DNA from: Rhizaria sp. SCN 62-66 | Lineage: Eukaryota | Direction: 5' to 3' | Length of the DNA stretch: 64,000 nucleotides | NCBI GenBank assembly: GCA_001724265.1 | Contig: MEDY01000014.1 | Location: 1-64,000 of the forward strand | Part shown: in pieces, positions 1-45,899 of the stretch | Layout of the letters: the number at the start of each line of letters is the position of its first letter | Position numbering within the stretch: the first letter of the stretch is position 1 | Notes under the pieces: model-generated | Databases searched by the model: none | What the model saw: the letters and a program-made list of their open reading frames with translations, nothing else | What the model was told of the DNA's origin: nothing | Made by a program: the position numbers and the translations under genes

Positions 1-2160
1 GCGGGCCGCCGCGGCGTCGGCCTTGGCGGCGGCGGCGTCCGCAGCGGCCTCGGTCGCCGCACGCTCGCGGGCCCATTCCTCCTGCGCCTGCGCCAGTCGC
101 GCCGCGGCGTCTGCTGCGGCGGCGCGCGCGGCCGCGGTTTCCGCAGCAGCGGCCTCCGCAGCGGCCTCGGCCTCGGCCGCGGTCTCGGCGTGCGCGCGCG
201 CGCTCTCAGACAGCGCGGCAGCCTAGGCCCGCGCGCGCGCGGCGTCGGCGGCGGCGTCGGACAGCGCGCCCGCGAGCTGCGCCAGCCGCTGCGCGTCACG
301 TTCGGCGCGCGCCTCAGCCTCCGCGGCGGCGGCGGCGCGGGCCTCGTGCGCGGCCTCGTCGGCGACGCTGCGCACGCGCTGCTCCGCCGCTGCGGCAGCT
401 TCCGCAGCGGCCACGGCCGCGCGCTCGAGCGCCTGGCGCTCTTTCTCCTCGCCGACCTGCCGCGCGATGACCAGCGCGGCCTTGGCAGTCGCCAGTTCCG
501 TCTCGGCCGCGCGCGCGCGCGCCTGCGCCTGCGCGACGGCCGCCGTGCCTTCGCGCACTGCGGCCGCGGCCTCAGCGGCAGAGTCGGCGTGGCGGCCCTC
601 GCGCGCGCGCGCCACGGCCAGCGCTTCCTCGGCCGCAGCCAGCTCGCTCTGCAGGCGCGCGGCGTCGCCGGCGCGCGCTTCGGCCGCGGCGAGGCGCGCG
701 GTGGCGTCGGCGCGGCGCGCGCGCTCGTAGTCGACCAGCTCAAGCGCGTGTGCGGCGGCGGCGCGCGCTGTGCTGCTGCTGCCACTACTGTGAGCCGCGT
801 TGCTGTTGTGGATGTCGCCACCAGAGACCGAGCTCGCTGTGCGCTGCGCGGCGGGGGCCAGCGCCGGCGAGCCGTCTCTCACAGTCGCCCTCGGCGGCGC
901 GGCGCTGTTGGCCGTGCCGTTGTTATGCTGTGTTGAAGAGGATGGGTTGCGCTGGTTGTTGACGAGAGCGCGCGCGAGCGCCAGCGCGTCGCTCAGGTGC
1001 GCGTGCATGTGCATGTTCGACGCTACGGCGGCCGCGGCAGTGGCGGCGTTGGCCGCGCTCGCCGCGACAAGCTCCGCGCCAGCGCCGTGGCCGGTCGCGG
1101 CCGCAGTGAGCGCGGTGACGGGGGGAGCGTAAGGCGCCAGTGCAGAGCTCAGCACACCGGAGCTCGGAACGGAGACAGAGCCTGAACGGTCAGCAGCAGT
1201 CGCTGCAGCAGAGCCAGCGCCATTGCCGTTGCTGGCGGCGAGCTGGGCCGCGGCGATGGCGGCGGCAGCAGCGGCCGCGGCCGTGGTCATCGCCTCAGAG
1301 TGACCGTGAGCCGAGTGACCGTGGGCAGGGGGCAGCATGTATGCGTCCGCAGTGTCGATGGCGTAGTCGGCCGCGTGCGTCGACGGGCTCAGTGGACCCA
1401 CGGTCGCCGCGCCAAACGTCAACGGCGGCTGCAAAACACCCTTGTTATTCGCGGGATACTGCTGCTGCTGCTGCTGCTGCGAGACGGCGTGGTGAGAGCC
1501 GTTACCGGGCGCGCGCGCACGGGGCGCGGGGGACAGGTGCGCCAAGCGAGCGGACGCAGCGGTGGCGGCGTGCAGACCGACGCCGGGCGCCACGGGGGCC
1601 GGAAGCGGGTACGCCACAGAGCCTGTACCCGCGCCAACACCCGCAGACGCAGCAGTAGCAGGAGTGGGGAAGGGGATGGCGCCGGGCGGGGCGGGCTCCA
1701 GCAGGAGATCCTGGCGCAGACGCCGCAGCAGCTTGTTGTAGTTGGCGATGTCCGAGTCCAGCGGTGTCGCGCTCGCGCCCGCGGACGAGGTCGTAAAGTA
1801 ACCCGCGCCGGCAGCCGCGTGCGACGGGGCCGCAAACGGGGCCGCGAACGGCGGCTGCGCAGACGGCGCGAAGCCAGGGGTGGCGGGCAGCGCGGCGTCG
1901 TGGATGGGGACGGAGGCCTGCAGACCGGGAGGCAGGCGCAAACCGGACCAGGCGGGCTTGCCGGAGCCGCTGGCCAGAATGCCCGAGCTGGGGTAATGCG
2001 GACGGTCCGTGGAGGAGGCGGCGCGGGCACCGGGGAGGTGTGACGAGGCGCCCATGGAAAGATTCACAGATTGGGTGCTTGTGTCCATGCCAGAGGCGCC
2101 AGCGAGCACGGGCGGGATATTCCCGAAGTCAATCGAACTGTAAAACACGTCGCGGCTCAT
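1..2160 (-). CDS. Uncharacterised protein, low-complexity N-terminus and Ala/Glu/Arg-rich coiled coil; contains in-frame TAG at 223-225; 3' end runs off the window
   Basis: ORF 223..2187(-), first ATG at 2158-2160 (MSRDVFYSS). Past the TAG the same frame stays open for the remaining 74 codons to base 1 with identical coiled-coil character (ARARA*AAALSESARAHAETAAEAEAAAE...LAQAQEEWARER) and no drop in GC. Confidence 0.75.
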
Positions 2161-2551: not shown

Positions 2552-4254
2552 ATGTCTGAGACTCTTCAGAACATCTTTTCTATTCACAGGGTACGTTTAA
2601 TACTGGCTGAACGCTGATCTATCTCATGATATAAGCTTTTATAGCCACTCACATCACAGCCTTCCACGTCATCGCTCCTTTGCCCGTCGTCCTGCAGCCC
2701 GCGGTGACCGTGACCGCGACCTCTGCGTCTGCCGCGCCGGTGACGCTTTCGCATGCGCAGCTTGCTGCGAACACCGACGCCTTTTCGCGCCAGCTGCGCG
2801 CGCTGGGCGTCGCTGTGGGCGAGACTGTGTCGATCCCCATCATCAATAGCGCCGAGTTCATCGTCGCCTTCATCGCCACCACGCTCACGGGCGCGGCCGC
2901 GAACCCGCTCAACCCTGACTACACGGAGGCTGAGTTTACCTTCTACCTTCAGGACACCAAGTCGCGCTTTATGCTCCTCCTCAAAGGCTCCTGCCCGAAC
3001 GCGCGCGCCGCCGCCGCGGCCAACAACGTCGCCGTCATCGAGGTGACCTGGTGCCCTACCACGGGCTCCGTCATCTTCGCCTCTTCTTCCCTGCCCGCGC
3101 CCGCGCCCGCCGCGCTGCCCGCGCCGCCTGCGGACGCCGTCGCGCTGATCCTGCACACGTCCGGCACGACCAACCGCCCCAAGGCCGTGCCTCTGACGCA
3201 CGCGAACCTCATGGCCTCGGTCCGCAACATCGCCGGCACCTACGCGCTGACGCCCGCCGACATCGGCCTGCTCGTCATGCCGCTGTTTCACGTCCACGGT
3301 CTCATGTGCGGACTGCTCGCCCCGCTCTACGTCGGCGGCTCCGTCGTGGTGCAGTATCACAAGTTCTCCGCCAGTCGCTTCTGGACTGACCTGCTCGCGT
3401 ATAAGTGCTCGTGGTTCACCGCCGTGCCCACGATGCACCAGATCCTGCTCTCGGGCGTCGGCAAGCGCGGCCCCGCGGCGCGCGCCGAGCTCCAGTCCGC
3501 TTTGCGCGCACAGGGCCGTCTGCGCTTTGTGCGCTCGTGCTCTTCCGCTCTGGCGCCTGCGACGCTGCGCGCGGTGCACGAGCTGCTGGGGGTGCCCGTG
3601 ATCGAGGCCTACGCCATGACCGAGGCGAGCCACCAGATGACGTCCAACACGCTCACGGTGCAGAAGCCGGGCTCGGTGGGCGTTGGCCACGGCGTCGCTG
3701 TGTCAATCCGCGACGACTCTGGCCGCGCGCTGCCGGCGGAGAGCGAGGGCGAGATCTGTGTCCAGGGCCCCAACGTCACCGCGGGGTACCTCAACAACCC
3801 CAAGGCGAACGCGGAGAGCTTCTTCCCGGGCGGCTGGCTGCGCACGGGCGACCGCGGTCGCGCTGACGCAGATGGGTTTATCTACATCACCGGTCGGCTG
3901 AAAGAGATGATCAACCGCGGCGGCGAGAAGATCATGCCCGGCGAAGTCGACGCCGCGCTGCTTGAGCACCCACTCGTTGCGGAGGCTGTCGTCTTCGCGG
4001 CGCCGCACGCGCTCCTGGGCCAGGTCGTGCACGCCGCTGTCGTGCTCAAGCCCGGCGCGCCTGACGCCACAGGTGACAGCAAGGTGGCGGCGGAGCTCAA
4101 GGGGCAGATCCAGCAGTTTGTGCGCGGAAAGCTCGCCGCGTTTAAGGTGCCTGTGGAGGTCTACTTCGCCAAGTCTGTGCCGCGGACTGCGACGGGTAAG
4201 ATCCAGCGCCGCTTTGTCGCGGAACACTTCCTCAAGCCCCAGGCCAAGCTTTAA
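2552..4254 (+). CDS. Peroxisomal acyl-activating enzyme, oxalate--CoA ligase type (AAE3/PCS60-like); 2 exons (2552-2590, 2698-4254), ~531 aa
   Basis: AMP-binding motif LHTSGTTNRPKAV, PLFHVHGL, EAYAMTEASHQMTSN, GWLRTGD, GRLKEMINRGGEKI, PRTATGKIQRR; C-terminal PTS1 tripeptide AKL; TAA stop. An upstream ATG exon (MSETLQNIFSIHR) joins in frame through GTACGT...CTGCAG. Confidence 0.88.
2591..2697 (+). other. Spliceosomal intron, 107 nt, phase 0
   Basis: GTACGT donor, CTGCAG acceptor, restores the frame from ATG 2552; the nearer AGs at 2644 and 2659 are out of frame. Confidence 0.7.
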
Positions 4255-4756: not shown

Positions 4757-7700
4757 TTACTTGCTGAGGTCGAGCGTGAGCTCGGGCGCGGCGTTGACGG
4801 CATGCATCTTGAGCAGGTGCGCCATCTGGGCGTCGCGCTTGAGCGCACTGAGCCCGCGCGCGACACGCACCGCGGCGCCGGCCGCAGCCGCCGCAGCATC
4901 AGCCGCACCAGTGTGCCAGAGCACTGCGATGGCCCAGGCGACGACGGCCGCTAGCGCAGGCGCGCGCGAGACGATGCCGATGGCGGCAATAAGCGCCAGC
5001 GCGGCGGCGGCCAGCGCAGTGCGGTCGTCGCCGGCGTCCCACGTCACGAGCGCTCGCGCGCGGTGCAGCGCCGTGGCGGCGCGGCCGCAGCCGACCTGAA
5101 GCGCGGTGAGCAGCGCCGTGCTCTGCGGCGACACTGTGGGGGCGAGCGCGCGCAGACGCGTGGCGTAACCCTCGAGCACGATGTCGCGGTGGTCCGCGGC
5201 GTAGTACGACGCGGAGAGCTGCGCGCGGCTGAGCTCGAAGTGGTCCTCGGCCGCCGAGACGACGATGCCGCACAGAAGCAGCAGCGCAGCGACGGTGATG
5301 AGCAGCCACGGTGCGTACACAGCACCCGCGGCGACGCCGACGAGCACCAGCGCCGACAGACTCGGGTTGCGCCACGCCAGCACCGAGTACACGGCAGCAG
5401 CCACGGTCAGCAGCCCGGAGCACGCGTCGGCGAACCGCGCGACGTTGAACACGAAGACTTCAGGAATGAAGACGTTGGTCGCAGCGACAATGCCACCCGC
5501 GGCGCCCGACTGCGACGCAGCGGCGTCGCCCGCGCCCGCGGAGGCCAGGATCGGCAGCCAGAGCGAGGGCTCGTCCGCGGCGCCGAGGTCGCCCAGCGTG
5601 CCCGCGCCGGTCATCGCGCGCGCGGTCGCAACGGCAGACTGGATGAGCTCCGCATCCGCCGCGGTCTGCGGCCGCGACCAGCCGTCCCACATCAGCCCCG
5701 CGCCCGCCGCGCCGGCACTGCCGGCCGCGGCGCCCGCGGGCGCGACGGCGGCCGAGGCGGCGGCCGAGGCGGCGGCAGCAGCGGCGGCGCGGTTGAAAGC
5801 GCCGGTGACGCCGTTGCGCGCGGCCCACTGCGCGACGGGGTGCGCGCCACCCGTGGCGGCCGCGGCGGCGATGGACGCAGTCGCGGCGTCGTCCGCATTC
5901 GTGGCGGCACCCGGGAGACGCGGCGCCGAGTAGGAGCGCGAGCCGTGCTCGACCTCCCAGAGTGCCCACGCGAGGCGGCTGAGCGCGAGCGTGGACTCGA
6001 CGCACACGAACAGGCCCTTGGGCGCGTCGGCGGCGTCGCCCGCAGCGGCGCTCGCGTCGGTGTGCTGGGACGCGAGGATCTCGTGGCGCAGCACTGCGCG
6101 GTCGACCTCGAGCGGGACGCCAGAGAGTGCGTACCACGCGCGGCGCACGGGCAGCTCGCCAGCGGCGGCGAAGGACTCGGCCGTGAAACCGTCGACCTGC
6201 GCGTCCGCCATGAGCTCGCCCAGCGACAGACGCAGCGCGCCGAGGCGGATCGGCCGTGCGGTCTGCGCAGCGGCGGCGCCGGCAAGGGCGGCGGGCGACA
6301 GCGCGGCCGCAGCGCCAGAGGACGCCGCTGCGGCAGCCGCGGCCGCGGTGGGCTTGGCGTAGACAGTGATGAGGAAACGCGTGTCGGGCGCGGCAATGGG
6401 GCTGCAGAGCCCGCGCGTGGGGGCGCCGGCGGCTGCGGCGGCCGGGGCCGATGCGGCCGGAGCGCGCGCCATGTGCGCAAAGACGGGGCCCGGGGAGGTG
6501 ACGTACTGGTCGTCGAGCGCGACGCCAGCGGGGAAACGTGTGCTTACGGTCATCGTGCAGTACAGCTGATACAGAGGCTCGCCCGCGGTGTCGCCCACCG
6601 CGCCCGCAAGCCCGTTGCCTAGCACGGCGGCGATGGAGCCGCCGAGACGCACGAGGCGCAGCGCGTAGTAACCGAGCGCCGCGGGGTCGAAGTCCTCTCC
6701 GACTGTCGCCACTGTGGTTCCGGCCGCAGCGGGCGTCGGCGCGGGGCGCGCACGCAGAGCGCGGAGTCCGCCCTTCGCCGCGGCACGCGCACGCACAGCG
6801 GCAAGCACGTCCGAGGTGGTGCGCGCGGCGAATGAGCGCAGCGGCGCGTGCCACGCGGCGTCTTCCTCGCCCGTCGCGGGCCAGGAGACCGTGCGCAGAC
6901 CGGGGATCAGATCGCCCGCGCCCGCACCACCGGCACCAGAAGCGCCAGAAGTGCGCGCGAGCACGGTGGCGTACTGCTTGCGCTCGAACGCCACGGCGGC
7001 GCGCACGGCGGCAGGATCCGTGGAGATGAGCTTGCCGATGCGCGCGATGCAGAGCGGCTGCTTGATGTTGGCCGCGTTGACGAGCGAGATGGGCAGCGAG
7101 CCGCAGAGGTCGGAGCCGAGCGCGTAGATGATGTCCGACTGCGGCGGCGCGCCCGCGGGCAGGTCTGTGGCGGGCGAGATGAGCAGCGCCTGCACGTGGA
7201 GAATGCCACGGACGAACTTCTTCCCCACGGGCACGCGCGGGTCGACGTAGTTGGTGAAGTACACGAAGATGGCCTTGTTGGGCAGCAGCTCAGAGCGGCC
7301 CAGCGTGCAGAAGTCGCGGCCGGACACGGGCCACGGCGCCTTGAACCCAGCCGTGGCGATGACCGTGTTAGTGTCGATGCTCTCGACGACGCGACCGGAG
7401 TCGTACGTGTCGTCCCACTTGGGGCGCGTGTTCCCGGCCGCGAACATGCAGCGCACCGTTTCGGGGTCGCCCGGAATGCGGCCGACGCCCTTGGTGTAGT
7501 TGAGCGGTGTCTTGCCGTCGCTGCCGGGCGGGCCCTGCTTCTGGTAGATCTTAATCCCCTCGAGCTCGGTGACAAACTTCCACCCGTCGTCCTCGTTCTG
7601 ATTGGCCGCGCGCCACGCCGCCGCGCGCGCAGTCACCAACAGGGCGTCGTGCTTGCACGGGCCGGTGGGCGCGATCGAGATTGCGTAGTCTTCCTGAGAC

Positions 7701-10700
7701 ACGCCTTCCACAGCGCCCGCGGGTGCAGCGGCACCAGCGCCGGCAGAGGCAGAGCCCGCGGCCGCCGCGGCGGAGGGACGGAACGACTCGAACTTGCGGC
7801 GCTCGAGTGCGACGGCCTCCTGCGCCACGGCGGGGTTGGACGCGATGAGCTTGCCGATCTTCGAGATGCACAGCGGCTGCTTGATGTTGGCGGCGTTGAC
7901 CAATGACTTGGGCAGCGAACCGCAAGGATCAGTGCCGATAGCGTAGATAACATCCGTGGCGTTGGGCTGGCCGTCGACGGGGCGCAGCAGCAGCGAGTTG
8001 TACAGGAGACGGCCGCGCACAAACTTCTTCTGCTTCGGCGCGTCGGGGTGATCCCAGTTACCGCTGTAGACGAAGATGGATCCGTCGGGGCGCACGACGG
8101 AGCGGCCCAGCGAGCAGAAGTCGCGGCTCGACACGGGCCAGGGTGCCGTGAAGTAGGCCCACGAGATGACGGTGTTGGCGTCGACGCGCTCGACCACGCG
8201 GCCGTCGCCGTACATTTCGTCCCACTTCGGCCGCGCTTCGGCAGAGGCGAACATGCACCGCACCGTCTCCGGCGGCGCGGCGATGCGTCCGACGCCCTTT
8301 GTGAAGTTGAGGTCCTGGCCGACAGGGCCCTTCTTCTGGTAGATCTTGATGCCCTCAAGCTCTGTCACGAACTTCCACCCGTCGTCCTCGTTGCGCGTGA
8401 CGGCGCGCCATGCCTCGGCCTCGCAGGCCTCGAGCGCGGCGTCGTATTGCGGCGACGGCGGCAGCGGGTCGACGCTGATGCCGTAATCAGCCTGGCGCAG
8501 ACCACTCGCGCTGGCGCCTGAGCCCGCCGCACCGGAGCCGCCCGCAGCAGCAGCGGCCGCGGCGGCCGAGTCGGCGGCAGCGGCGGCGGCGGCGGCGGCC
8601 TCCTGGAGCGCGGTCTTGAACTTCTCCGCCTCGGTCTCTATCGCAGTGCGCACGGCGGCCGGGTTGGTCGCGATGAGCTTGCTGATCTTGGCCATGCACA
8701 GCGGCTGTTTGATGTTCGCCGCGTTCACCAGCGACTTGGGCAGCGAGCCACACGGGTCAGTGCCGATGGCGTAGACCACGTCGGTTTTGTCGGGCTGGCC
8801 GGGCACGGGCCGCAGCAGCAGCGCAGTGTACAGCAGCACGCCGCGCACGAGCTTCTTCACCGGCGGCGCGTCCGCGTGGTCGAAGTTCGTGCTGTAGACG
8901 AAAATAGCGCCGTCGGGCAGCACCATCGAGCGGCCGATGGCGCAGAAGTCGCGCCCAGCGACGGGCCACGGCGCCTTAAAGTTGGCATACGACACGACGG
9001 TGTTGGCGTCAATGCGCTCGACGACGCGGCCCTCGCCGTACATCTCATCCCACACAGGCCGGATCTCGCCGCACGCAAACACGCAGCGGACCGTCTCCGG
9101 CGAGCCGTTGATGCGGCCCACGCCCTTGGTGAAGTTGAGGTCCTGCCCCGTGGGGCCCTTCTTCTGGAAAATGCGGATGCCTTCCAATTCAGTGACAAAC
9201 TTCCACCCGTCGTCCTCGTTGCGCGTCGCCGCGCGCCACGCCTCGGCGTGCGCGGATTGCAGCGTCACGTCGAACTTGTTCGCAGGCAGCGGCGCCACCG
9301 AGATCGAGTACTTGCTCTGATCCAGTCCAGACGCAGCCGCAGCGTCATCGGGCTTCGCAGCGGAGGCAGCGGCAGCGGCGGCTGAGGGCGAGCCCGCCGC
9401 GACGCTGACCACGCCCTCCACAGCCCCAGCCCCGGCGGCGCCAGTGACCGTCGCGTTGGGCGCGCCGAAACGCGTGATGTTCTCGTTGAACTTGTCCATT
9501 TCAAGCTTCTTGGCCTGCGCCACGGCGGCCGGGTTTGTCGCGATCAGCTTGCCGATCTTGGCCACACACAGCGGCTGCTTGACGTTGACCGCGTTAACGA
9601 GCGAGGGCGGCAGCGATCCGCACGGGTCGGTGCCGATGGCGTAAACCACGTCCGAGAGCTCCGGGGCGCCGGGCACGGGCTTGATCCACGTCGCCGAGAA
9701 GATCACCAGTCCACGCACGACCTTTTTGACCGGTGGCACGGCCGGATGGGTGTAGTTGCCGTAGTACACGAGGATCGAGCCGTCCTTGGGGTCGACGAGC
9801 GTGCGGCCAAGCGAGCAAAAGTCGCGGCTCGCCACGGGCCACGGCGCCTTGAAGCTGGCGTACGACACCACCGTGTTGTGGTCGATTTGCTCCACGACGC
9901 GGCCCTCGCCGTACATCTCGTCCCACTTGCTGCGCGTCTCGCCGCATGCAAACACGCGGCGCACCGTCTCGGGGGAGCCCACGATACGGCCCACGCCCTT
10001 GGTGAGCTTCACGTCCTTGCCCGGCGGGCCCGGCTTCTGGTAGATCTTGATGCCCTCAAGCTCGGTGACAAACTTCCACCCGTCGTCCTCGTTGCGCGTA
10101 ACGGCGCGCCACGAGTCGGCCTCGCTCTGCGCCAGCAGTGCGTCGTAGCGCGACGGCGGCAGCGGGTAGATCGACACCGCGTAGTCAGCCTGGTTCAGAC
10201 TCGTGCAGAACGCAGCGCTGCCGGATGCAGACGCAGCGCCTGCAGCGCCAGCAGAAGCGGGCGCGGAAGCAGAGGCGGGGCGCCGAGTAGTGCCATGTTC
10301 GTCGTCGCCCTCGTCGTCTTGATCATCGTCCTCGTCCTCGTCTTCGTCGTCGTCACTGACTTCGCTGTCGTCGCTCTCCTGCGCGTGACCGTGCCCGCCC
10401 TTGTTCGCGGTGGGCGCTGCGCCAGCACTAGCGGCGTTTGCGGCATTCTTGACGGCGATGTTAGACGCGGCGAGGATGGGAGCGAGAGGAATGCGCGCGA
10501 CACCCTTCTCGCCCAACCTGTCCCACGACCAGCTCTCCTGGCACCGCGCCGGGTCCAGCTGCCCCGGAATCGCGTCCCCGGTCATCGCGCCGCCAGCGGT
10601 GTTGATGTTGGTGTTACCGGCGCCAGTGCTGATGCCCGCGCGCTGTGCCTCGGTCCAGAAGCGCTGCGCCAGCTCGACGTGTGCCATCACACGCTGCTCC

Positions 10701-11428
10701 ACGGCCGCGGCCGCGTCGGGCGCCTCCAGCACGCGGCGAATGCCGGCGATAAGCAGCGGCAGCGTTGGCGCGGACGCGTTGACGAGCGCGGCGGGGATGT
10801 TACCGTTGGGGGAAGAGAGCACGGCGTACGTCAGGCGAGTGAGCGTGCCGTCGCCGAGGGGCGCGAAGAGGAGGCCGCAGTAAGGAATGCTGGAGCGCAC
10901 GTAGCCGTCGCGCGGCTCGGGCACGCAGGGATGGGAGACGGCGGTGGAGAAAACGAAGATGGAGCCGTCAGCACGGGGCTCCCACCGCATCACCACCAGG
11001 GCCTCGCGGTTGGCGATCGGCCAGCCAAGCTTGTAGGCGCTGTAAATCACGTCCGTGCGCTTGTCGACGCGTTGAATGTGGCGACCCTCACTCAGCATCG
11101 GGTCCACGGCCATGCGCAGCGGCAGGCAGTGGTTCGCAGTGAAGTGTGTGATATCGGGCGAGGCCTGGACGATGCCAACACCTTTGGTGCCAACGAACGG
11201 GTCGCCCTCAACTTGCTTGAGAAAGATCTCGACGCCGTCCTTCGTGTCCTTGTATTTCCAGCCGGCGTTGCCGGCTAAAGCTTCGGGCGTCGCGTCGTGC
11301 GAGACGCCGCACGTGACGGCTTCGAGCGCGAGCGGACGCGCCCGCGCCAGAGCGGCCTCCCACGATGCCAGGATCTCGGCGCCCTGCGGCGTCAGCGGCG
11401 TGAATGCAGGGGAAGAAGACTGACTCAT
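4757..11428 (-). CDS. Multi-START-domain lipid-binding/transfer protein (5 START domains, possible C2-like region, C-terminal hydrophobic membrane anchor), ~2223 aa
   Basis: One divergent START domain ([14 protein letters not shown]...WPIANRE...[11 protein letters not shown]) plus four similar copies ([20 protein letters not shown]...KWDEMY..GRVVE.ID...APWPV..RDFC...DPCGSLP.SLVN); hydrophobic segments near the C-terminus; ATG at 11426-11428; TAA stop. Confidence 0.88.
6970..10190 (-). repeat. Four tandem intragenic START-domain repeats, period ~800-870 nt
   Basis: Near-identical DNA block 'aacttccacccgtcgtcctcgtt' recurs near 7575, 8371, 9198 and 10071. Confidence 0.9.
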
Positions 11429-11912
11429 CCCTCTTGGTCTCGGTGTGCAACCACACAACGCAGCGTTGACTGGTAGAAAGCGAGCAGCTCAGACAGAGCG
11501 GGCGGGGGGAAAGAGGCAGAAAAGGTTGTGTTGCAGAAGGGAAGCAGGTCCGTCCGAACACTGAATGACAGATATTCACATAGGGGAGATCGTTGTGAGA
11601 AATGTAGATGATAAGAATAGCCGCGCCACAAAAAATTCTTGTTAGGAATCACTATTGCAATATTGAGAAACGGTTCTACCAAGGCTGACATGTGTGTTTC
11701 TACAAGCACCGAATCGACACGTAGACTAAGCCGTCAGAAACAGAACGGTGCTTCAGGAGCCCAACAAGCAGCTTCGACTCTCATCATCGCGACGTCTTGT
11801 GTATCAGGAATAGCTTTTATCCACATTCTGGTTTTTGCATAGTGTAGCAGCGACTCACATTTATTCTCTTTTTCTCCCTTTTTTCATTCTGACGTTGCAG
11901 TGACCGGTCACC

Positions 11913-12601
11913 ATGGTCGGATGTCAGGCAGCTGCCTCCAGCTGTCTCTGGCTTCTTCTCATTGTGGCTTCCCTTTGCGGGCTCACACTCGCGGAGGTAT
12001 GTTCCCCACTCCGCATTTGTTTAGTACCCGTGTTTTTTCTCTACCCTGTACAATGCCACCCCGAAATTCTTCTGTGTAGCCCCCTCACATTACCTCCCCG
12101 CTCACCCACCCTGCCTCCTTCTGACTTGCTGTCCCCAACTTGCTTTTGTCCCCTTCCCCACAGGATGCGCCCCCGGCGGGCCAGGCGTACTATGCACCGA
12201 CGGACAACACGATCGACACCCCGACGTACGTGTGGCGCAACTTCCCTTCCGGCGCGAGCTCGATGACGCACCGTCCGTGGGTGCAGCCCCGTGTACCGAC
12301 CGGCCCTATCGTGATCCCCGCCACGAGCTCAATCGGCGCACAATACGCCGGCGTGCTCCTGCCGCAGCCCATCCTGCCCTTTGCCGCCAACTACGTCTCG
12401 CTGCCGCTGCGCGACGGCCGCGGTGGCAATCCCAGCGGGTTCGCAGACTACACGAACCATCTCACCCCGCCTATCTTCATGGAGATGGGCGTCAAGATCT
12501 TGCTCCCCGTCGCCGCCACCGCCGCCGCTGACGCTCCCGCCGTTGCTGCTGTTGCCCCCGCCGCGGACGCGGTGGAGCCCGTTGTGCCGCCCACGTTCTA
12601 A
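11913..12601 (+). CDS. Small secreted Pro-rich protein of unknown function; 2 exons (11913-11996, 12164-12601), ~173 aa
   Basis: Exon 1 encodes a signal-peptide-like segment MVGCQAAASSCLWLLLIVASLCGLTLAE; the GTATGT...CACAG intron joins it in frame to DAPPAGQAYY...; TAA stop. Confidence 0.75.
11997..12163 (+). other. Spliceosomal intron, 167 nt, phase 0
   Basis: GAG|GTATGT donor, pyrimidine-rich body, CACAG|GAT acceptor, frame preserved. Confidence 0.8.
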
Positions 12602-14553: not shown

Positions 14554-15080
14554 CAATGGGCACGCTGCTGTGGGAAGGGATTAGTGCTGTGATCGAGGTC
14601 AAGTGCCATGTCAGCAAAAAAAGAGGTCATGTGAGCATTGTTCGAGAAGTGTTATGAGAATGTAATTTGAAAAGAGAGTTGAAGAACACAAAAAAGTATA
14701 GGGAGAGCGGCGGATATCTCTCTTTGACGATCCTAGGTTGTGGATCCGCTTGACTTAAGTCAACGTCCACAGCGATCCTGTTTGGGGTCGCGCGGCAGCA
14801 GTGGTCTCCCCTTGGCAACTTTCTTATCAACACTCCCTTGACATACCCTGAACGTTAATTGTTCCATATCTTTCATCACGGATTAATTGTGATGCGATTT
14901 ACATTATATTTAACTTTCGCATTTATTGGATCAATTTATAGTCCTTTCATTCCGTCGATACATCCATCCTTGTCCTCCTCTAGGTTTCTCTTACTTTCGA
15001 TTGCTTACCCGTCTTCCTTGCCGCCATTCTTCAAACTATTTTCCTGTGCCCGCCCCCTATATTACAGACCACAGACTCCT

Positions 15081-16529
15081 ATGTCCACCGCGTCCACGAG
15101 CCGCCGCGGCGCGAAGGAGATGGAGACGTTCGAGTACGACCCCACTGCGTCGCAGCTGGTGTCCAAGGTGGCCGCCTACGACGCCGGCCTCACCTCGGCC
15201 GCGCGTGCTTACGCCGCCGAGCTGCGCCCGCAAGACGAGCACGCGCTTGTTAGCGAGCCCTTTGACCCTAAGCTCGCCTTCGAGCACTTTGCCGGCGCTG
15301 TCTTCGTCCCTTCGCGTCCTTGCACTGGCTCCGCTGTCGCTTCCGCCGCCTCCGCCTCGGCCGCCGCTGCCGCCGCCGCCTCCGTCCAGGCTCGTTTCGC
15401 ACGCCCCGAGACGCCCGAGGAGCGCCTTCAGCGCTTCCGTCGCGAGGTTGCCGCCTTTAAGTCCGAACTGGAGGTTCTCACCCGCCGCCACAAGGCCGCC
15501 GCCGCCGTCGCCAACGCCGGCTCTACCCCAAACAACAACGCCAACGCCCCGCTGGCGGCCGCGCTGCTGGTGCAGACCGACCTCGACTTGCTGGCTGAGG
15601 AGCTGGGCGCGGCGTCGCTGACTCAGGACGCCGCTGCAGTCTCCAAGCCCCCCGGCGCGGCCGCCGGCGCCGCCGCGTCTCTGGCCGCCGGCCTTAAAAC
15701 CATCAAGCCCTCCGCCTCTGCCCCCGCTGCTGCTGGCGCGAGCGCGAGCTCGACCGTCGCGGCAGCTGCGGGGACTAGTAGTGCGACAATGACCGTAAGT
15801 ACTGGGATGACCGTGAGCGAGGCTGCGGCGGCCGAGCGCCGTCTGGCCAAGCTGGAGCAGGTGGTCGGTATGTCACGCGCGAGCGATCTCGCCAGCGCGG
15901 ACCTCTGCTCGGGGCTCGCCGCGCTAGGCCGCCAGGTCGAGCTACTTGACATGGGCCGCATCGAACGCATCGTGCGCCGCACGCGGTCTCTGGCCGCTGA
16001 GCTGGATTTACTCACCGCAAAGCAGCAGCAGCAGGCCACCGCCGCCGCCGTCGCCGCCACTGCGTCCTCCTCCAGCGCGCCCGCCGCTGTCGCTGGGACT
16101 CCCGCTGCCGCTGCTGCTGCTGGTGGTTTGGCGGCCGCGGGCGCCGGCGCGGCGAGCACCGGCGGCGCCGCGGGCTCTGCGGCCAACGCCAACGCTAGTG
16201 GTGCGAGCCGCGAGCAGCTCAACGCGATGTACACGCTGCTGCAGCGCTGGGACTCTGTCGCGGCCGCGGTGCCCACGGTTGTTGCGCGCCTGCAGTCGCT
16301 GCGCGGCGTGCATGACGAGGCTGTCGCGGCCGTTGCGCGCGTTGCCGCCGTCTCGCAGCAGCACGACGCTGCGCTCAAGCGCGCGCATGACGCCAAGGCT
16401 GCGGCGACGGCGCTGGCGGGCGCAGTGGAAGACAACGCGCGCGTCATGGCCGGGAATGTTGAGGCGCTGCAGGGACGCATGGAGGCGCTCACGGCGAAGG
16501 TTGACAAGCTCCTCGCGCAGCGCAAGTGA
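15081..16529 (+). CDS. DCTN2: Dynactin subunit 2 (dynamitin/p50), ~482 aa
   Basis: Dynamitin-like blocks ETPEERLQRFRREV, AERRLAKLEQVVG, LGRQVELLD and QLNAMYTLLQRWDSVAAAVPTVVARLQSLRGVH; ATG at the GC transition (15081); TGA stop. Confidence 0.85.
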   Translation: MSTASTSRRGAKEMETFEYDPTASQLVSKVAAYDAGLTSAARAYAAELRPQDEHALVSEPFDPKLAFEHFAGAVFVPSRPCTGSAVASAASASAAAAAAASVQARFARPETPEERLQRFRREVAAFKSELEVLTRRHKAAAAVANAGSTPNNNANAPLAAALLVQTDLDLLAEELGAASLTQDAAAVSKPPGAAAGAAASLAAGLKTIKPSASAPAAAGASASSTVAAAAGTSSATMTVSTGMTVSEAAAAERRLAKLEQVVGMSRASDLASADLCSGLAALGRQVELLDMGRIERIVRRTRSLAAELDLLTAKQQQQATAAAVAATASSSSAPAAVAGTPAAAAAAGGLAAAGAGAASTGGAAGSAANANASGASREQLNAMYTLLQRWDSVAAAVPTVVARLQSLRGVHDEAVAAVARVAAVSQQHDAALKRAHDAKAAATALAGAVEDNARVMAGNVEALQGRMEALTAKVDKLLAQRK

Positions 16530-17146: not shown

Positions 17147-18076
17147 ATGTCTTCCGACGACGAGCCCGAGGAGCGCGAGATCATGCCCGGCGTGTACGTC
17201 ACACACTACGGCAAGAACAAGAAGTCCGCCGCTGCCACTGGCACTGCCGACCGCGACGAGTCGAAGGCGTCCGCGGCCGCTGCGATGGCCGCTGCCGCCG
17301 CGGGCGACGATGACGCCGACTTCTCCCAGTTCTCCACCGAGTTCCTGCTTGCTGAGACGCAGCGCCTCAGCGCGCAGATGGATGCCGTGCGCGCGCGCAC
17401 CGCCGAGGACACCGCCGAGCTTGCCCGGCTCCGCGCGCGCATGGCGGCCGAGCTCTCGGGTCACTCCGGCGCCGGCGCTGGGCACGCTGCGACTGGCTCC
17501 ACGCGCCTCCCGGGTTCCGCCGCGAGCGTCTCCCCCGCGATGCCTGGCTTCTCGCCTACGGAGGCCGTGCACCAGCTTGAGTTCCAGCTCCGCGCGGCCG
17601 AAAATGACCTGCGCCACCTTGAGCAGTCGCAGGTCACGTTGCGTGCTGCGCTCGAGGCTGAGCCTGACGACGAGGTTCTTCAGGAGGGTACGCACATTTC
17701 AGGCCTTATAATGTTGTGTTAGAAACTGATCTTTGGCGAAATAGCATGCTTGTTGTGATTTACTTCAATTCTCTTTGCCAGATCGTGTTATCTCCATCAT
17801 AATCTTTATTGTTTCCGATGTCGTATCGATGTTATTCCTTACATTCTTTTTTTTTCTTTTCTTCGCTACTGTTCTTTCGCATTGTTTGCGCCCACCACAG
17901 CCGTCACCGAGAACGAGCCCGTGCTGGCGAAGAAGCGCGCCGCGCTGATCCCGCTGCGTGAGGACATTGCGCGCCGCATCGCAGCGCTGGGCCCTGCCTA
18001 CAAGCCCGCTTCCGTCCCTGCCCCTGCTCCTGCAGCGAATGATGACGATGACGACGCTGCTGAGCGCGCAGAGTGA
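17147..18076 (+). CDS. Uncharacterised small coiled-coil protein; 2 exons (17147-17687, 17901-18076), ~238 aa
   Basis: Two ORF-track pieces joined by a GTACGC...CACAG intron give ...NDLRHLEQSQ..LRAALEAEPDDEVLQEAVTENEPVLAKKR...; TGA stop. Confidence 0.78.
17688..17900 (+). other. Spliceosomal intron, 213 nt, phase 1
   Basis: G|GTACGC donor, AT-rich body with T-tract, CACAG|CC acceptor; reconstitutes GCC (Ala). Confidence 0.85.
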
Positions 18077-18628
18077 GTGCCGAGAAGGAATCGCTTACAA
18101 TATATGTAGATCGTATTATTTTGGAACGATTGAGAGTGCCTGTGTGAAGCTGCGGGAGTTGTATCGGCTGTGCTGTGTCGCTAGAAGGCCGTGACCAAAG
18201 TGAAGAAGTTGAGTTATATACACCCAAACATATATATATACACTTAAAGATGCCTAAAATCAATTTCATCTCCCAACAATCATGAATAAATTTTGGTCAG
18301 ACCATCATTGGGCTCATTTTGATTGACTTGGCTTGATAAGTTTAGTAGAAGCTTCACCATTGCGAGTGTGCGACCGTTCTAACGGTCAGCACCCAGAAAC
18401 GGGTGGAGTTGAAATTGCGAAGCTACTTTCTCTGGTTTAAATGTCGTCAGTGCAAGTATGACAGAGATATATTATTTAAGTATCCGTTTTCTCTAACATA
18501 TTTAACCTTTCTTTTAATATTTTCGTTTTATGCTTTGATTCAGACTTTTCTAGGAACACCGTTCGTCTCCGTGTACCGTCGGTTATTGTGTCGGCTAGCT
18601 CTCACTACCCCACGCTCTGTGCTGTCCC

Positions 18629-19258
18629 ATGCACTCCACGCGTGCGCCCACGCGCCACCACGGCGACAGTCATGCGCGACCAACGCCTGCCTACGGCCCG
18701 GAAGGCGCTGGTGCTGCTCAGTCCCAGCCCCAGTCCCATTCGATGACCGCGACATCTTCGTCCTCTTCGTCCTCGGCCCCGGCCCCGCGCCCGCGCCCGC
18801 CAACGGCGCAGACCCAGCCCCACGGCTACTCTGCCGCGACGTCGTCCAGCACTGCTGGTGATTGCGGCCACGACCGCGCGCACGACCGCGGCGGATCTCG
18901 CTCTCGTCCTGTCTCCGCTGCACCAGCTCACCAAAGCTCAAGCTCAAGCTCTAGCTCTGGTCCCGCGCCGCCCGCAGACGTGCTGCAGCTGGACAAGGCT
19001 CTCCGCGAGTGGAAAGAGCGCTGCCACGGCGCCGAGCGCGCGGGCGCGCAGCAGCGCGCCCGACTGGCGCGGCTGCAAGAGCAGCTTGCGCGCGCAGAGG
19101 CCTACAACCGACAGTTGCTGCTGGTGAAGATTAAGGCGTACCAAACCCAGGTCGAGCACGAGGACCGCGCGCGCGCCGACCGCGAGCGTGAGCAAGAGCG
19201 CCGGCGCCAGGAACAAGAGCAGGAGCAGAAGTCCAAGAAGCAGCAACAGCAGCAACAA

Positions 19259-19323
<65 letters not shown>

Positions 19324-22300
19324 CGGTGAGCAAGAGCAGGAACAGAGGGATGTTGACGGCAAGCCTGTGCGTCGCACTACCGCCGACGCCTCTGGCCTGC
19401 GCCCTCCGCGCTCAACCACTGCGTCGCCTGCTCTCGAACAGGATACCGCTTCTGCCAGTAACGCCGACGCTAGCGCCGCCACTGACGCTACCAGCAAGGC
19501 CGGTAGTAAAACTGACGCTGCCGCTGACGCTGATAGCACTGCTGCAGCTGCTGACGCGCACGCCAATAAGGACGACAAAGCCAGCTCCCGCTCTAGCGCC
19601 AAACCCGGCTCTAGCTCTGGCTCTGGCGCTGCTGACTCCAGTGAGCCCCCAATGGCCTCCTTGACCGCGCAGCACCTCTCTGCGCTCGCGCGCGTCGTGG
19701 CCGACTCCGGCGCCCTGCACGCGCGCATCCAGGCCCTCGAAACCGCGCTGGCTGACCGAGACGCCGCGCTGGCGGCCGCGGAGCACGACTCACGCTACGG
19801 CCGCCGCCTCGCCGACGCGCGTGCCGCGCTGCAGCAGGCCGAGGCCGCGCGCGCGGAGGCCGACGCCGCGCGGGCTGACGCCGAGGCTGGGTGGGACCGT
19901 GCCGACGCAGCGGTGGCGAGCTATGGCCGCGCGCTGCGGGCGACGGAGCGCGAGCGCGACACCGCTGTTGCGGAGCGCGATGCTGCTCTCAGAGAGCGGG
20001 ATGAAGCGAAGAAGCGCGCGGCGAAGCTTGAGAGGCAGCTTGCGCGGGCCAAGCGCTACGCAGCGAAACGCGCTGCAGGCGGTGCTGATGCTGCTGAAGG
20101 TGAGGCCGAGTCTGACCTTTCCGAGTCTGAGGCTGAGGCCGAGGGTGCTCGTGACACTGATGCTGACACCCTGAGTTCAAGCGCGACATCCAAGCGGGTT
20201 CACACCAAGAACGGTCCGTCCAAGGGTCCCGAATCTAAGGGCCGCGACGAGATGATTCAGGCCTCAAACCCGTACTTCAAGCCCGTCCCGGCCTCGCCTC
20301 GCCACACCGAGACCGAGGGCCACAGCACTACCGCGGCGACTGGCGGCCGCCCCGGATACAGCGCCGCGCTCTCCCGCGACGGCCACGGCCACGGTCATGG
20401 TTCTAGCAAGGATGACATCAACGACCGTCTGCGGTTCAACGCGTTCACGCCGACGCCGCGCCAGCTCATGCTGCTGTCGAGCAACGTCTCCGGCTCGCCC
20501 AGTGTGTCCTCGATGCGCGAGACACGCGTCATCGCCGCCGGCCAGCCTGCCGCGGACCACGTTCACGGCCAGCAGCAGCACCAGCCACAGGGCGGATACA
20601 GCGGTTTCCGTGCGGCGGGGCACGCGCGCGGCCGCAGCCACGGCGCGACCGGCCCCTCGCCCTTCGCCGCCAGCGCCAGCGCCAGCAGCAGTGGCAGTGG
20701 CAACGGCGGCAACGCGAGCAAGAGGCCCGCTTCTGCGCGCCCCGCGTCGGCCGCGTTCCGCAGCCCCTACGCGCCCCCACAGTCCGCACAGTCGCAGGCA
20801 CATGCGCCTTCGCATAAGGCGCAATCGCAGAGCGGCAGGACGGACAGGCCCGCTGAGCAGGACGCCGGTGCAGTCGGGAGCGGCAATGGTGACGACGTTG
20901 GCAGCATGAACAATGTGAACGGTGACGATGATGACGGCGCGGGCTCTTTGCATGCGTCTACCACTGCGCCGGACGAGCACAGCCACACCCGCAGTCGCGG
21001 TTACAGCCACGAGCAGGGTCACGAGCAAGGCGGTTACGAGCAGAGCCAGGAGCGTCAACAGGAGCAAGGCAGACGCCAGCTCCGCGCCCGGCCCCAGACG
21101 AGCCCTTCTCGCCGCGCTTTCGCCCACGGTCACGCCCACAGTCACAGTTCCAGTCAAGATCACGGCCACGGCCCCGCGCATAGCGGCAGTCGCACGCCCG
21201 CGCGGAGCCCCGCGCGGAGCCCCGGCACGAGCCCCGCTCGGAGCCCCGCCGGCAGCCAGCGCAACAGCCCGATCCGCTCCGCGCCCGCGCCCGCGCACAC
21301 TGGAGACGGCCCGCCGCCGCCGCCGCCGCCGCGTCGCGTGCGGCCCACTTCCGCGCGCCCTCGGTCCGCGGCATCGCGCCCCGGCTCAGCCTCCAGCGTG
21401 GGCTCCGCCGCCGCTCACCCCGGCGCTGATGGCAACATGAGCGGCGGCGGCGGCGGTGTGGGGAATCCTTACTACAACAGCAGCGTGTTTGAGCTGCACG
21501 TGGCGCGCAAGCCGCTGCTGGAGCAGATCTCGGACGAGGACGAGGAGTCGCTCGCTGCTGAGAGCGCGCGGCGCGAGAGCGAGCAGGCAGCGCAGCAGTC
21601 GGCCGCGGCGGGCGACGCCGCCGCGCAACAGACGCCGCGGCGCGTGATTATGACGGGCTCGGCGCTGCGCCCTGTTGACGGCAGCAAGGGCAACGGCAAT
21701 GGCAGTAACGGCCCCAATAGCAGCCGCAAGAGTGACGACAAGCAGGCGCAGTCTGTCGACGGTGCTGACGGCTCTCAGCAGCCGCAGTCGCCGCCGCAGT
21801 CGCCGCAGTCAGCACGGCGCGCGCGGGGCCCGGCGTACATGGCGCCCACCCAGTCCTCAGCGCAGGCCGCTGCGGCCGCTCATAACAACGGTGGCGCTAG
21901 CAGTGGCGACAAGGCACGGTCGCGGTCGCGGTCGCCGCAGCGCGCGCGGCCTCATACGGCCCACGTGCGCGCTCCTGCATCGCACGACAGTGGCGACACG
22001 CAACCTCACTCTGGTCAGAGTGGTCAGAATGACCATGAGCGTGAGCCGTCCAACTCGCACTCGCAGTCACCGTCGCCCGCTCGCCGCGCCCGCCCCAGCA
22101 CCAGCACTGGCGTCAGCGGCAGGGGCGGCGAGAGCGCAGCTGCACCGGCCCGCCAGCGCCCACACCCGCCGTCCTCGGCCGAGTCCCAATCTGGCGCTCA
22201 CGCCCACTCTGGAGCCGGCTCCGGCTCCGGTGCGACTGCGGCTGCCGGCGCGCGCGGCGGCGCGGTCCGCGCGGCGATGGCCCGGCGCGCGGCGCGGCAG

Positions 22301-24923
22301 ACGTCTCTGCGCAACGCCGCTGCGGCCCGCGTGTGCGCGCAGTTCCAGGCGGACGTGCTACGCGCGGCGTCGCACCCTCTGCCCGCCAACGCCGCCGCGG
22401 TTGTCTGGCGCCGCCTCGATGCAGACTCCGTCTCCGCACCCGCCGACGTCGCCGCGGACGCCGCGCGGTGGAAGCTCGACGAGCGCAACGGGCTCTACTC
22501 ACGTGGCGCTGCGCGGTTGTGCCCCGCCGCTGCCGCTGCGGGTGGCAAGCAGTACACAGTCACCGTGCCCGTGGTTGTGCCCGCGCTCCCTAGCGAGTCG
22601 GGCGACTTTACCACTGCAGTCATGGGCGCTGTGTCGCCCGCACCGTCGTTGCAGCCACCGGCCACTGCCGCGAGCGTGCTGGCCGCTGCGCGCTGCCCCG
22701 GCGCGGTCCCGCTCTCGCAGCTTGGCGCATTCGCGGCGGCGTTCCTCAGTGCAAAGCGCCACGTGGTTTCGGCTGCGGTCGCCCAGGCCTTCGCTGCGCT
22801 GCCGCTCGTCGACGCCAAAGCCGCAACGGCGGCCGCGCACGCCGCCTCCGCCGCCGCCACGCCCGCAGGCGCCCGCGCGCGCAAGTCCCGCAGCAGCGCC
22901 AAGGCCCAAGGCGCCGTGAGTGATGCAGAGGGCGCGTCGCCGGCGCTGTTGGCCGCGATCGTGGCCGAGTTCGCGGTAGGCGAGCTGGACGAGGCGGTCG
23001 AGCTCACTTCCCTCATCGCCGCTGCGCATACGCATGTGAGTTTTGCCACGCCCGCGGAGTGCGCTGCCGCTGCTTCCTCTTCAACAGGCAACGCGGACGA
23101 CGATGATATGGAAAGCGTTGGCGTGTCCGAGACCGCGATCACGGTCGCGTTCGAGCCCGTCACCACTGCGCCCTCCTCTGCCGCCGCTGTGGCCGCCGCG
23201 GCCGCCGCGCTGCTGGCCGCCGAGCCCGCGACCCCGCGCCGCGGCCGCAGCGATAGCGCGCGGCGTGCGCTGTTCGACGACAGCGAGTCCGACGCCGCCG
23301 ATCGCAACTCCAGCGGCGACGCGGCCGGGGACCGCGTGGCCGACGAGGCGGGCGCGCGCCGCGGCGGTGTACGCCGAACAGCTTGCCCTCCGCGCCGGCC
23401 CCGCCGACTACCTCGTGTCCGCCCCTTCCCGCCAGCAGCACGGCGCCGGTGTGGCCGAGGACGAGCGCGAGGTGTTCGTGCCGCAGCCGCGCGACAAGAC
23501 CGCGCTGCGCGGGCGGCTGCACGCGGCCGCGCTCTCGCTCCTCGTGCCCGCTCTCAAGAACCACCCCGCGCTTGCTGCGGTCGAGTCCGGCGGCGGCCCA
23601 GAGCCCAACTCTGAATGCGACGCCGCGCTCGCGTCGCTGCGCATCACGGCGTACGCGCCCGACGTTGTGGCCGGAGCCGCGGCGCTGGACTCGCTGATCG
23701 AGACGTCGCTGCACCACATGGCGATCAAGCCCCGCGACCCGCCGCTGCCGCTCTCATTCGCAGCGGGGCACAACGCCGGCGCCGGGATCTCTGCGCTGCC
23801 CGTCGCAGCGCCAGTGACCAAGGTGATGTTCGGCAGCCCGACGTCAGTTCCCGCGACACCCGTCAAGACGAGCAGAGCGGACGCTGCTGTGACGCCCAGG
23901 GCTGATCCTATGACGCCCAGGGCTGAGTCTGCGGCTCACAAGGAGGAGCCTGTGACGCCCAAGACTGAGACTGGGACGAGGCACAGGCCCACGAGCGCGA
24001 GCGTCAGAGGACGCATGACACCGTCCAGTGCGGCGGTCTCATCCAGAGCCACTGCATCGCCCCGCAAGCCCGTCGACACCGTGCCTGCTTCTGCTCCTGC
24101 TTCTGTTTCTGCTGCAGACGCCGCGCCCCAGTCCGCCCACGCGGAGTCACTTAAGCCCGCTGCCGAGTCACCAAAGCCTACTGCAGCGTCCCCTAAGCCT
24201 GTAGTCGCATCGTCTCAGCCTGATGCGGAGTCACCTAACCCTATTGCAACATCGCCTAAGCCCGCTGTGGCGACCTCACAGAGGGACTCTAAGCCGGACT
24301 CCGCAACGATCCCCATCGCGTCACACAGTGATGCCGTTCCTGTTGCTAACGCTGCTGCTGCTCCAGATGCTCCTCATGCGGATGCTGCTGCTGCTCCTGC
24401 AGAGTCCAAGCCCGAGGCCCATGGCGCTGAGAGCGCTACTGCTCACGTCAAGCCCGAGGCACATGCGCAAACCAACGCTGCTGCTGCTGAAGTCAGGGTT
24501 GAGCCTGTCCAGTTGACTGATGCTGCCACTACCGCTGCTGCTGCCCCTACAGCGGCCGAGTCAACGCCTGTTGCCAGCACCGATGCTGCTGCTCCTATCC
24601 TCGCAAACGCTGGCGCTGGCGCGGACGCTGATGCGGAGATCGAAATCGAGGGTGACGGTGACATTGCTGCTGACCCAGCAAGTGCGAGCGCTGCGAGTGT
24701 GAAGCCGCCGAGTGCTGGTGGTGCTGCGGCGCCGACTAAGCTTGCGACTGAGGCCGAGACCGAGGCCAAGACTGACGCGAGCAAGCCTTCACCTGCTTCT
24801 GTGCTTGCAAGTCCTCCGGCCCCGGCTGCCGCTCCAGTTGCGACAGCTGCGACTGAGGCGAGTCCGGCTAGCCCGCGAGCAGGCAAGGGCACAAGCGCTG
24901 ATTACGATCTCGACTTTGAGTGA
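18629..24923 (+). CDS. Large uncharacterised protein (coiled coils, polyQ, Ser/Pro/Ala low complexity), ~2100 aa, with an apparent 1-nt frameshift at ~23350
   Basis: ORFs 18629..23614 and 23043..24923 overlap; native-looking Ala-rich translation switches frame at GAC GAG GCG G GCG CGC GCC GCG GCG GTG TAC (GGG at 23350-23352); TGA stop followed by AT-rich DNA. Confidence 0.72.
19241..19321 (+). repeat. CAG/CAA microsatellite encoding 27 Gln (20 pure CAG at 19262-19321)
   Basis: Read directly from the sequence. Confidence 0.95.
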
Positions 24924-25679
24924 GCCACACAAGATCTAAAGAGTGGCTATTATGTAATTATATTGTATATTTACACAAAACACACCCCCATTGTTTGTCG
25001 TCTGTATACCACAATTTATTTGATGCTGTCTCAGATGTGCCTAGCACGGTCATCGTTTATCCACATATTATTTTGTTTTTTTACTGTACCCACTGCAACC
25101 GCAGAGATATATCTTCATGCTTTTTATGCCATACACAGTTTCTACCGTTATTTGTCACACTTTTGCATGCAAAATGTTCGACATAAGCAGATGTTGCCGC
25201 TTTTGTTACTCAATATCTCTTCTGATGGTCGTGCGATATACGCCGCTAAACATCAGCTTTGAGTACAAAAACCGCACGGTTGTGAGTAATTCAACACGAA
25301 GCTAAAGCATGTTTTATATATGTTGATATAGATATCAGCCATGCGGAGATATGCAGAGTTTAGCTATCGCATAACCGTTGCTTCACTCGCGTGGCCCCGC
25401 TGGCCAGAGCCTCCGGCGACCGACTGCAGATGGCACCTTCTCGCAGTTTGCGACAGACCAATTCCTAAGGCTCATATACGTTAGTTTAACATTTCGATAC
25501 ATTTAGTCGCATTCAGACGTTTTTATTTATTCTTATGCAATTTGTCATTTTTGTAATTTCTCATTAACCTCTTTTGCTTGCCTGATTGAACTCGTCCTCT
25601 TTCCCACAGTTGACATCACTCGAAGGCCACTGCCCTAACCCTTCACACAGCCCCGCGCACTCCTACAGACACGTCCGCT

Positions 25680-33801: not shown

Positions 33802-34380
33802 GACTGGGCACTTTGCGAACAGACCGCTAGGGCCGCAATTATCTCAATTCTGTTCAAGTAGTCTCTGTTCAAGTTACTGTTTTTAATCCAATGTCTGCTT
33901 GATGAGAAATCAGTGATACAAGAGTAAATAATAGATATTTAGTTTCAATATACAATTTCATATAGTTACACGAGTGAAACTAATATGTTTAATGACATTA
34001 CACGACGACCATGTGCTGAGCAGAAGATTTTGGTTTGTGACCCTCTGAGGTTTGTTGCCGTACATTGATTGCTGTGGCAGGCCAAAGAAGCTTTGAGATA
34101 TCCGAAAATGTGGCTTCTTCTTTGCATACTTTATATTACGCTGAAATAAAGCTCAATAACGAAACTATTGTGCTATATGAGACTTAATTGTGAGCTGCTG
34201 GCAACTTAAAGTATTTTTAAGTCAACAAGATACCAACGCAAATTAAAGATAAATATCACTAGGACTAAATTTACATATGTATTGACTAAGTTATGATGCG
34301 TATTCATTTAATTGAGTTTAATTCGATCACTGTAGCCCGATAATTTCGTTCACACAGTCATTTGGAATTTACGTACAATC

Positions 34381-45865: not shown

Positions 45866-45899
<34 letters not shown>

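Follow-up and report, generated by a model that had tools for sequence, protein, structure and literature searches.

The DNA analysed here, called the window throughout, is a single stretch of 64 kb with 52-78% GC, in which long and mostly intron-free open reading frames (ORFs) are separated by short AT-rich spacers. The features needed in the following are, in the order of their coordinates:

1-222, minus strand: part of gene 1 behind the first in-frame TAG (TAG #1), 74 codons within the window, continued by 54 in contig L001
223-225, minus strand: TAG #1 in the minus-strand translation, with agreement of L001 and a contig of run X3
226-2160, minus strand: gene 1 from its ATG (2160-2158) to the TAG, 645 codons, the N-terminal part disordered and of low complexity, the later part rich in Ala, Glu and Arg
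2635-4254, plus strand: AMP-binding CoA ligase (Pfam)
4757-11488, minus strand: one protein with five START-domain matches (Pfam)
11997-12163: intron of the small secreted-protein gene 11913-12601, donor GTATGT
14859-16529, plus strand: dynamitin (Pfam)
17688-17900: intron of the small gene 17147-18076, donor GTACGC
25614-28874, plus strand: Methyltransf_28 protein (Pfam)
within 29239-33843, minus strand: end of an alpha-carbonic anhydrase (Pfam)
44308-50280, plus strand: P5-type ATPase (Pfam)
51023-55735, minus strand: EF-hand protein (Pfam)
58703-58944 and 59033-59145: introns of the aminotransferase gene, donors GTACGT and GTACGC, respectively
59073-59966, plus strand: part of a class-III aminotransferase (Pfam)
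60215-61594, minus strand: gene 14 behind the second in-frame TAG (TAG #2), 459 codons, with an auxilin-like J-domain candidate containing the HPD motif, and terminated by TGA (60217-60215)
61595-61597, minus strand: TAG #2, in a His-rich stretch with 801 open codons upstream and 459 downstream
61598-64000, minus strand: gene 14 before TAG #2, 801 codons, the 5' end lying beyond the window

The four spliceosomal introns that can be read in the window are visibly AT-rich and about 113-242 nt long (manual count), and the source is therefore a eukaryote; it is no ciliate either, given the 52-78% GC, the long contigs and the AT-rich spacers. Among protein matches with names, the best overall are fungal, at 40-53% identity. 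With the CoA ligase as query, all of the best named matches among the 120 listed are fungal (47-52% identity), and unnamed environmental proteins among the same 120 are nearer (57-77% identity). The P5-ATPase has its best named match in Coemansia, with 40% identity across 15% of the query sequence. A single-gene, midpoint-rooted tree was built from 42 AMP-binding proteins selected from these 120, comprising the named ones and the closest unnamed ones. The window protein is placed there among unnamed environmental sequences and falls outside the named Ascomycota, Mucoromycota and Kickxellomycotina. The possibility of a zoopagalean fungus from sludge was considered for the lineage and dropped, as the searches gave it no support. 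Metagenomes from bioreactors, wastewater and activated sludge contain the sequence of the window, with 96-97% of its sampled words found in the runs X1-X3 and 25% in X5, a polyA metatranscriptome, and the samples that contain it are near-identical to each other.

With respect to gene 1, 665 codons without a stop precede TAG #1, 645 of them counted from the ATG, and a further 74 stop-free codons follow it up to the edge of the window. This stop-free continuation on the minus strand, already described in the initial annotation, is borne out both by re-translation and by L001, a public metagenome contig of 3011 nt that equals positions 1-2848 of the window with 0 mismatches, TAG #1 included. L001 adds 163 nt beyond the window edge, by which the frame of gene 1 can be followed for 128 codons past TAG #1; the real stop, which the initial annotation had proposed to look for in the neighbouring sequence, lies further on still, as L001 ends within the open frame. 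In another study, run X3 yielded a contig that spans 149-1327, again including TAG #1, with 0 differences. Since L001 and the independent X3 assembly both carry the triplet, an assembly slip is unlikely, and TAG #1 is real. That very GC-rich DNA is hard to sequence and that the contig seems to be frameshifted at another place (see below) would speak for an error of sequencing or assembly at the TAG, but in view of the two identical contigs, and of the fact that no variant at 223-225 is listed in four runs at the level of contigs, in which rare variants get dropped, such an error is hardly credible. The 645-aa product that ends at TAG #1 is found letter for letter as an Atlas entry. Among the listed RNA contigs of X5, two lie on gene 1 (1177-1430 and 1755-2003), and none of the listed pieces of X5, X4 and X6 covers TAG #1, a neutral result with 4137 more pieces unlisted in four runs.

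An intron that removes TAG #1 can be set aside, since not one GTAYG donor is present on the gene strand of the full contig L001, in agreement with the initial annotation, which had seen no GTAYGY donor nearby, and since the known introns of the window are visibly AT-rich, whereas the DNA around TAG #1 has 77-88% GC. At such a composition, an open frame carries little information of its own. In fact, 9193 of 20000 mononucleotide shuffles (46%) of the 384 nt behind TAG #1 stay open, as do 146 of 368 off-frame windows with a GC content of at least 0.75, and over the same 384 nt stops are missing from four of the six frames, that of gene 1 included. With about 80% GC and nearly half of the shuffles open, the stop-free frame alone is therefore no evidence, and it is the codon usage that has to be considered.

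Codon usage was scored with a log-odds table built from eight long ORFs, with genes 1 and 14 excluded. Over 60 codons, the score of the gene 1 frame is 0.67 before TAG #1 (best other frame -0.51) and 0.66 after it (best other frame -0.45), so that the codon pattern initially described as unchanged past the TAG indeed shows no drop. Over all 128 codons behind TAG #1 the score amounts to 0.685, compared with -1.09 and -0.44 for the two alternative frames; none of 2000 off-frame windows of 128 codons reaches this value (maximum 0.43), and in-frame windows from the nine long ORFs of the window have a mean of 0.40 (sd 0.16, maximum 0.78). GC content by codon position is 0.93/0.64/0.89 before and 0.91/0.73/0.85 after TAG #1, and total GC, taken over 150 nt on either side, is 0.85 upstream and 0.81 downstream. 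Behind the 12 terminators that were scored, the codon score is negative in 11 cases and 0.20 in one, and the GC content after the 12 measured gene ends is 0.31-0.51, as against 0.81 after TAG #1 and 0.66 after TAG #2. The coding signal is thus undiminished past TAG #1. A genuine stop behind which GC-rich repeats resembling Ala codons happen to give a coding-like frame would be compatible with the many open shuffles and with the four open frames, but not with a score that no off-frame window attains, nor with the lack of the GC drop seen at real gene ends, nor with the recurrence of the same pattern at TAG #2; this explanation is very improbable and close to refuted.

The segment of gene 1 in question consists of 48% Ala, 13% Glu and 11% Arg. 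The label of a coiled-coil gene, under which it was first annotated, is not borne out, as the 3.5-residue periodicity expected from heptads is not above that of shuffles, 197 of 1000 of which reach it. Searches with both halves of gene 1 against Pfam gave no family, apart from one match at chance level (E 0.33) in the 74 codons behind the TAG. Similarly, no homologue of the 128 residues behind the TAG was found among longer proteins at E <= 1e-5 in 8000 scored candidates, and the read-through product (774 aa, table 15) had 0 matches at E <= 0.001 among 1.84 billion representatives, in a search that missed even the query itself, for which the composition filter is probably to blame. Look-alikes of the 645-aa part in the Atlas had a top score of 0.82, which is under the bar of 0.9, and gave no family. 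With no homologue of gene 1 found, there is no orthologue column from which the residue at TAG #1 could be read, and a comparison with internal repeats, which might have revealed an ancestral residue at this position, returned only low-complexity matches.

The second in-frame TAG lies in gene 14. The GC content is 0.67 before and 0.66 after TAG #2, with no AT-rich spacer between the two halves of the gene, and AT-rich DNA (GC 0.31) follows only after the TGA of gene 14. Behind TAG #2 the mean codon score is 0.31, and the gene frame scores above both other frames in all eight blocks of 60 codons. The introns that can be drawn here from a nearby GTAYG to a downstream CAG all have a length of 1 modulo 3 and would break the frame (manual reading). 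The only recognisable part of gene 14 is the J-domain candidate, which lies downstream of TAG #2. It is matched by Pfam DnaJ with E 0.0067 and 16.9 bits, below the cut-off of 27.8 bits, and by auxilin J-domain chains of the PDB at E 0.4-0.6, and a Foldseek comparison of a low-confidence AlphaFold2 single-sequence model (mean pLDDT 59.8) with the PDB yielded no match at E <= 0.001. The C-terminal part of gene 14 may thus be regarded as a weak candidate for an auxilin-like J-domain.

With regard to stop codons across the window, the 16,471 codons of 12 coding stretches comprise two in-frame TAGs but no in-frame TAA or TGA. The two TAGs belong to two of 16 genes, and neither is found at an alignable or conserved protein position. 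In turn, the 15 genes having their 3' end in the window terminate with TAA (seven genes) or TGA (eight genes), and none with TAG. Three of these terminators are backed by the end of a domain: in the CoA ligase (539 residues, with AKL at the C-terminus), AMP-binding_C extends to residue 522; dynamitin (556 residues) is matched up to the last of 396 profile positions, at its residue 544; and in the carbonic-anhydrase protein (1534 residues) the match reaches residue 1524, at position 252 of a profile of 254. The missing TAG terminators are only a weak hint, since TAG is scarce in non-coding DNA as well, where 10,854 nt contain 200 TAG, 339 TAA and 407 TGA; given this share of 21% of the stop triplets, finding none among 15 terminators has a P of about 0.03.

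Several further observations concern the triplets of this genome. In non-coding DNA, the trinucleotide TAG/CTA reaches 0.56 of its expectation, compared with 0.85 for TAA and 1.14 for TGA, a deficit according to which TAG is generally avoided. Among 12,437 codons, ATA (4), CGA (9) and AGA (10) are rare and CAG (374) is common. The base following the terminator (+4) shows a strong preference, with G after 11 of the 15 terminators and TGA-G in all eight TGA stops. Two other TAGs, at 17720-17722 (an ORF end) and at 43303-43305, were rejected both as coding TAGs and as terminators, the former being located inside an intron and the latter in an AT-rich 5' leader. The 64 kb window contains no tRNA genes of any kind and no eRF1 gene, and an Rfam scan of it gave 0 matches.

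The sequence contexts of the two TAGs bear on explanations in which TAG remains a normal stop. In gene-specific programmed readthrough, a fraction of the ribosomes would make an extended isoform in these two genes, and the likeness to such cases lies in the coding extension that continues behind the stop codon; in addition, the base behind TAG #2 is C, a leaky one at position +4. However, TAG #1 is followed by G, the same base as after 11 of the 15 true terminators. Known readthrough motifs are UAG-CAR-YYA of tobacco mosaic virus and UGA-CUAG of animals and fungi, and the contexts found here, GCC-UAG-GCU-GCC and AGC-UAG-CAC-UGC, match neither. Moreover, with no fewer than 128 codons in one gene and 459 in the other, the extensions of these two of 16 genes go far past the usual length, the one of gene 14 carries the domain-like part, and the local RNA structure at neither TAG is stronger than in shuffled sequences. 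Readthrough of this kind is consequently improbable.

Another route past the TAG would be restorative A-to-I editing of the mRNA, by which UAG becomes UGG (Trp). In filamentous ascomycetes, premature UAG codons are corrected in this way at the sexual stage, and, according to the available excerpts of these reports, the editing prefers U at position -1, often hits UAG and restores 71 'pseudogenes' in Fusarium graminearum (PMC10776026, PMC11156358). As in the cases that these excerpts describe, genes 1 and 14 have a genomic in-frame TAG in an otherwise intact frame, and a full-length product requires that the TAG be overcome; the best named protein matches being fungal, and the A of TAG #2 lying at the 3' margin of a hairpin loop of 7 nt in the predicted fold, would also agree with editing. 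Unlike a change in decoding, however, editing acts on the mRNA, and its preference for hairpin loops is not seen at TAG #1, which is paired in the predicted fold; both folds are in fact weaker than those of shuffles (z +1.5 and +1.9). The organism also falls outside the Ascomycota in the single-gene, midpoint-rooted AMP-binding tree, the absence of TAG terminators would not be explained, and two affected genes out of 16 are far above the known rate. The 71 restored genes are a small share of the gene set of F. graminearum. Editing, although a genuine alternative in a fungus-like organism, is thus quite improbable for the two TAGs described here.

A more serious competitor, although an unlikely one, is that the two TAGs are nonsense alleles or mark young pseudogenes, i.e., recent mutations such as CAG to TAG in two fast-evolving, low-complexity genes, the downstream codon pattern of which has not decayed yet. 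Both genes are indeed of low complexity and without detectable homologues, and with CAG being a common codon (374 of 12,437), TAG is the likeliest product of a nonsense mutation. Because the samples are near-identical, a single clonal lineage could carry such defects in a fixed state. In addition, another gene of the contig contains an apparent frameshift, from which it follows that this contig is not free of defective genes or of faulty assembly, and this leaves room for gene decay. Against it stand the very high load implied by the truncation of two genes in 16, the loss of the only domain-like part that gene 14 would suffer, the lack of decay over 128 and 459 codons, and the coincidence that TAG accounts for both triplets, to the exclusion of TGA and TAA, with no TAG among the terminators.

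The apparent frameshift itself is found in a plus-strand gene at 18599-24923, where the frame changes near 23,330-23,370 between the overlapping ORFs 18599-23614 and 23040-24923. The change takes place within about 40 nt of GC-rich sequence in which no plausible intron can be placed, and it would be due to an indel of the assembly, to a true frameshift or to recoding.

By comparison, a single cause suffices for the TAGs in two of 16 genes with continuing frames, for the absence of TAA and TGA in frame and for the absence of TAG terminators if UAG is read as sense, which is therefore the simplest explanation. We consider the chances to be roughly one in two that UAG is a rare sense codon in the nuclear genes of this organism and that TAA and TGA serve as its terminators. 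Two in-frame TAGs are too few to prove a changed genetic code, and confirmation of such a change is beyond the reach of one window. Of the four options that the initial annotation had offered for TAG #1, an error is thus disfavoured by the presence of the triplet in L001 and in the X3 contig, decoding is favoured by the undiminished coding signal, the second in-frame TAG and the 0 of 15 TAG terminators, and a nonsense allele and readthrough are kept as lesser readings.

A ribosome would have to pass the TAG at 223-225 to make full-length gene 1 product, and the TAG at 61595-61597 to reach the J-domain end of gene 14. The decoding might be accomplished by a tRNA with the anticodon CUA or by strong near-cognate suppression. 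Gln would be the prior favourite for the amino acid inserted, for the sole reasons that CAG and TAG are separated by a single transition and that UAG=Gln is the commonest code change of this type. That TAG is so rare, with two cases in about 16,500 codons, agrees with a genome in which A/T-rich codons are avoided. This rarity and the location of both TAGs in low-complexity, unconstrained segments would also agree with a reassignment that is young or little used, new sense TAGs appearing first at unconstrained sites.

Reassignments that affect UAG only have been described before. In the excerpts available of the respective reports, UAG encodes Leu in the rhizarian exLh, with 384 UAG codons in 71 genes and 56 UAA, 15 UGA and 0 UAG as terminators, it encodes Gln in Iotanema spirale (PMC5304391), and it encodes Leu or Gln in phyllopharyngean ciliates (PMC11687900). 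The likeness to these codes, as far as they are described there, is that UAG is found inside genes and that UAA and UGA are the sole terminators, which compares with seven TAA, eight TGA and 0 TAG in the window. However, according to the same excerpts UAG is frequent in these organisms and located at conserved Leu or Gln columns (PMC5304391, PMC11687900), whereas the window has only two TAGs in its roughly 16,500 codons, and each lies in a segment of low complexity. Further differences from these descriptions are the 52-78% GC and the other lineage, with fungi as best named matches, and no suppressor tRNA is seen in the window. Ambiguous codes, in which a stop codon is read as sense within genes and still terminates near the 3' end, are known from Condylostoma, karyorelict ciliates and Blastocrithidia (10.1101/2022.04.12.488043, PMC12153298). 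The sense reading within genes is shared with the window, but, by the partial accounts at hand, termination by the same codon is not, since TAG terminates 0 of 15 genes here; in addition, only one stop of three is affected.

Taken further, it is conceivable, if rather doubtful, that the window derives from an uncultured, GC-rich, intron-poor eukaryote of wastewater reactors, with its nearest named protein matches in early-diverging fungi, in an early stage of UAG capture, the codon having gone from the terminators and come back only at unconstrained sites, independently of ciliates, rhizarians and fornicates, and that this might be the first stop reassignment in a fungus-like nuclear genome. 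In the titles and opening lines of abstracts covered by our literature search, no TAG reassignment was reported for a wastewater eukaryote or for fungal nuclear genomes, and no stop-codon reassignment for those fungus-like groups to which the best named matches belong. If true, this would be a new and independent UAG-only reassignment in a GC-rich, non-ciliate lineage, and as such a further case of a known phenomenon. The small number of reassigned codons would make it useful for understanding stop capture, with disappearance of the codon coming first and its reappearance at neutral sites next. On the practical side, if TAG is sense, gene callers will truncate proteins of this organism, and the Atlas version of gene 1 is already cut at this point. 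If the TAGs are merely nonsense alleles, the finding is an ordinary one.

Finally, some of the proteins encoded in the window have features of their own. The CoA ligase ends in ...QAKL followed by TAA (4240-4254, plus strand), and AKL, a peroxisomal PTS1-like tripeptide, fits the names Pcs60 and oxalate-CoA ligase among the fungal matches. The START protein (4757-11488, minus strand) has an unusual architecture, with five matches to this lipid-binding domain in one chain of 2243 residues (Pfam E 1.6e-73). Very large low-complexity insertions are present in conserved enzymes at 25614-28874 and 44308-50280 (both on the plus strand): the Methyltransf_28 protein has 1086 aa and its Pfam match is split into three separate stretches, and the P5-ATPase has 1990 aa, compared with mostly 1200-1500 aa for its matches.
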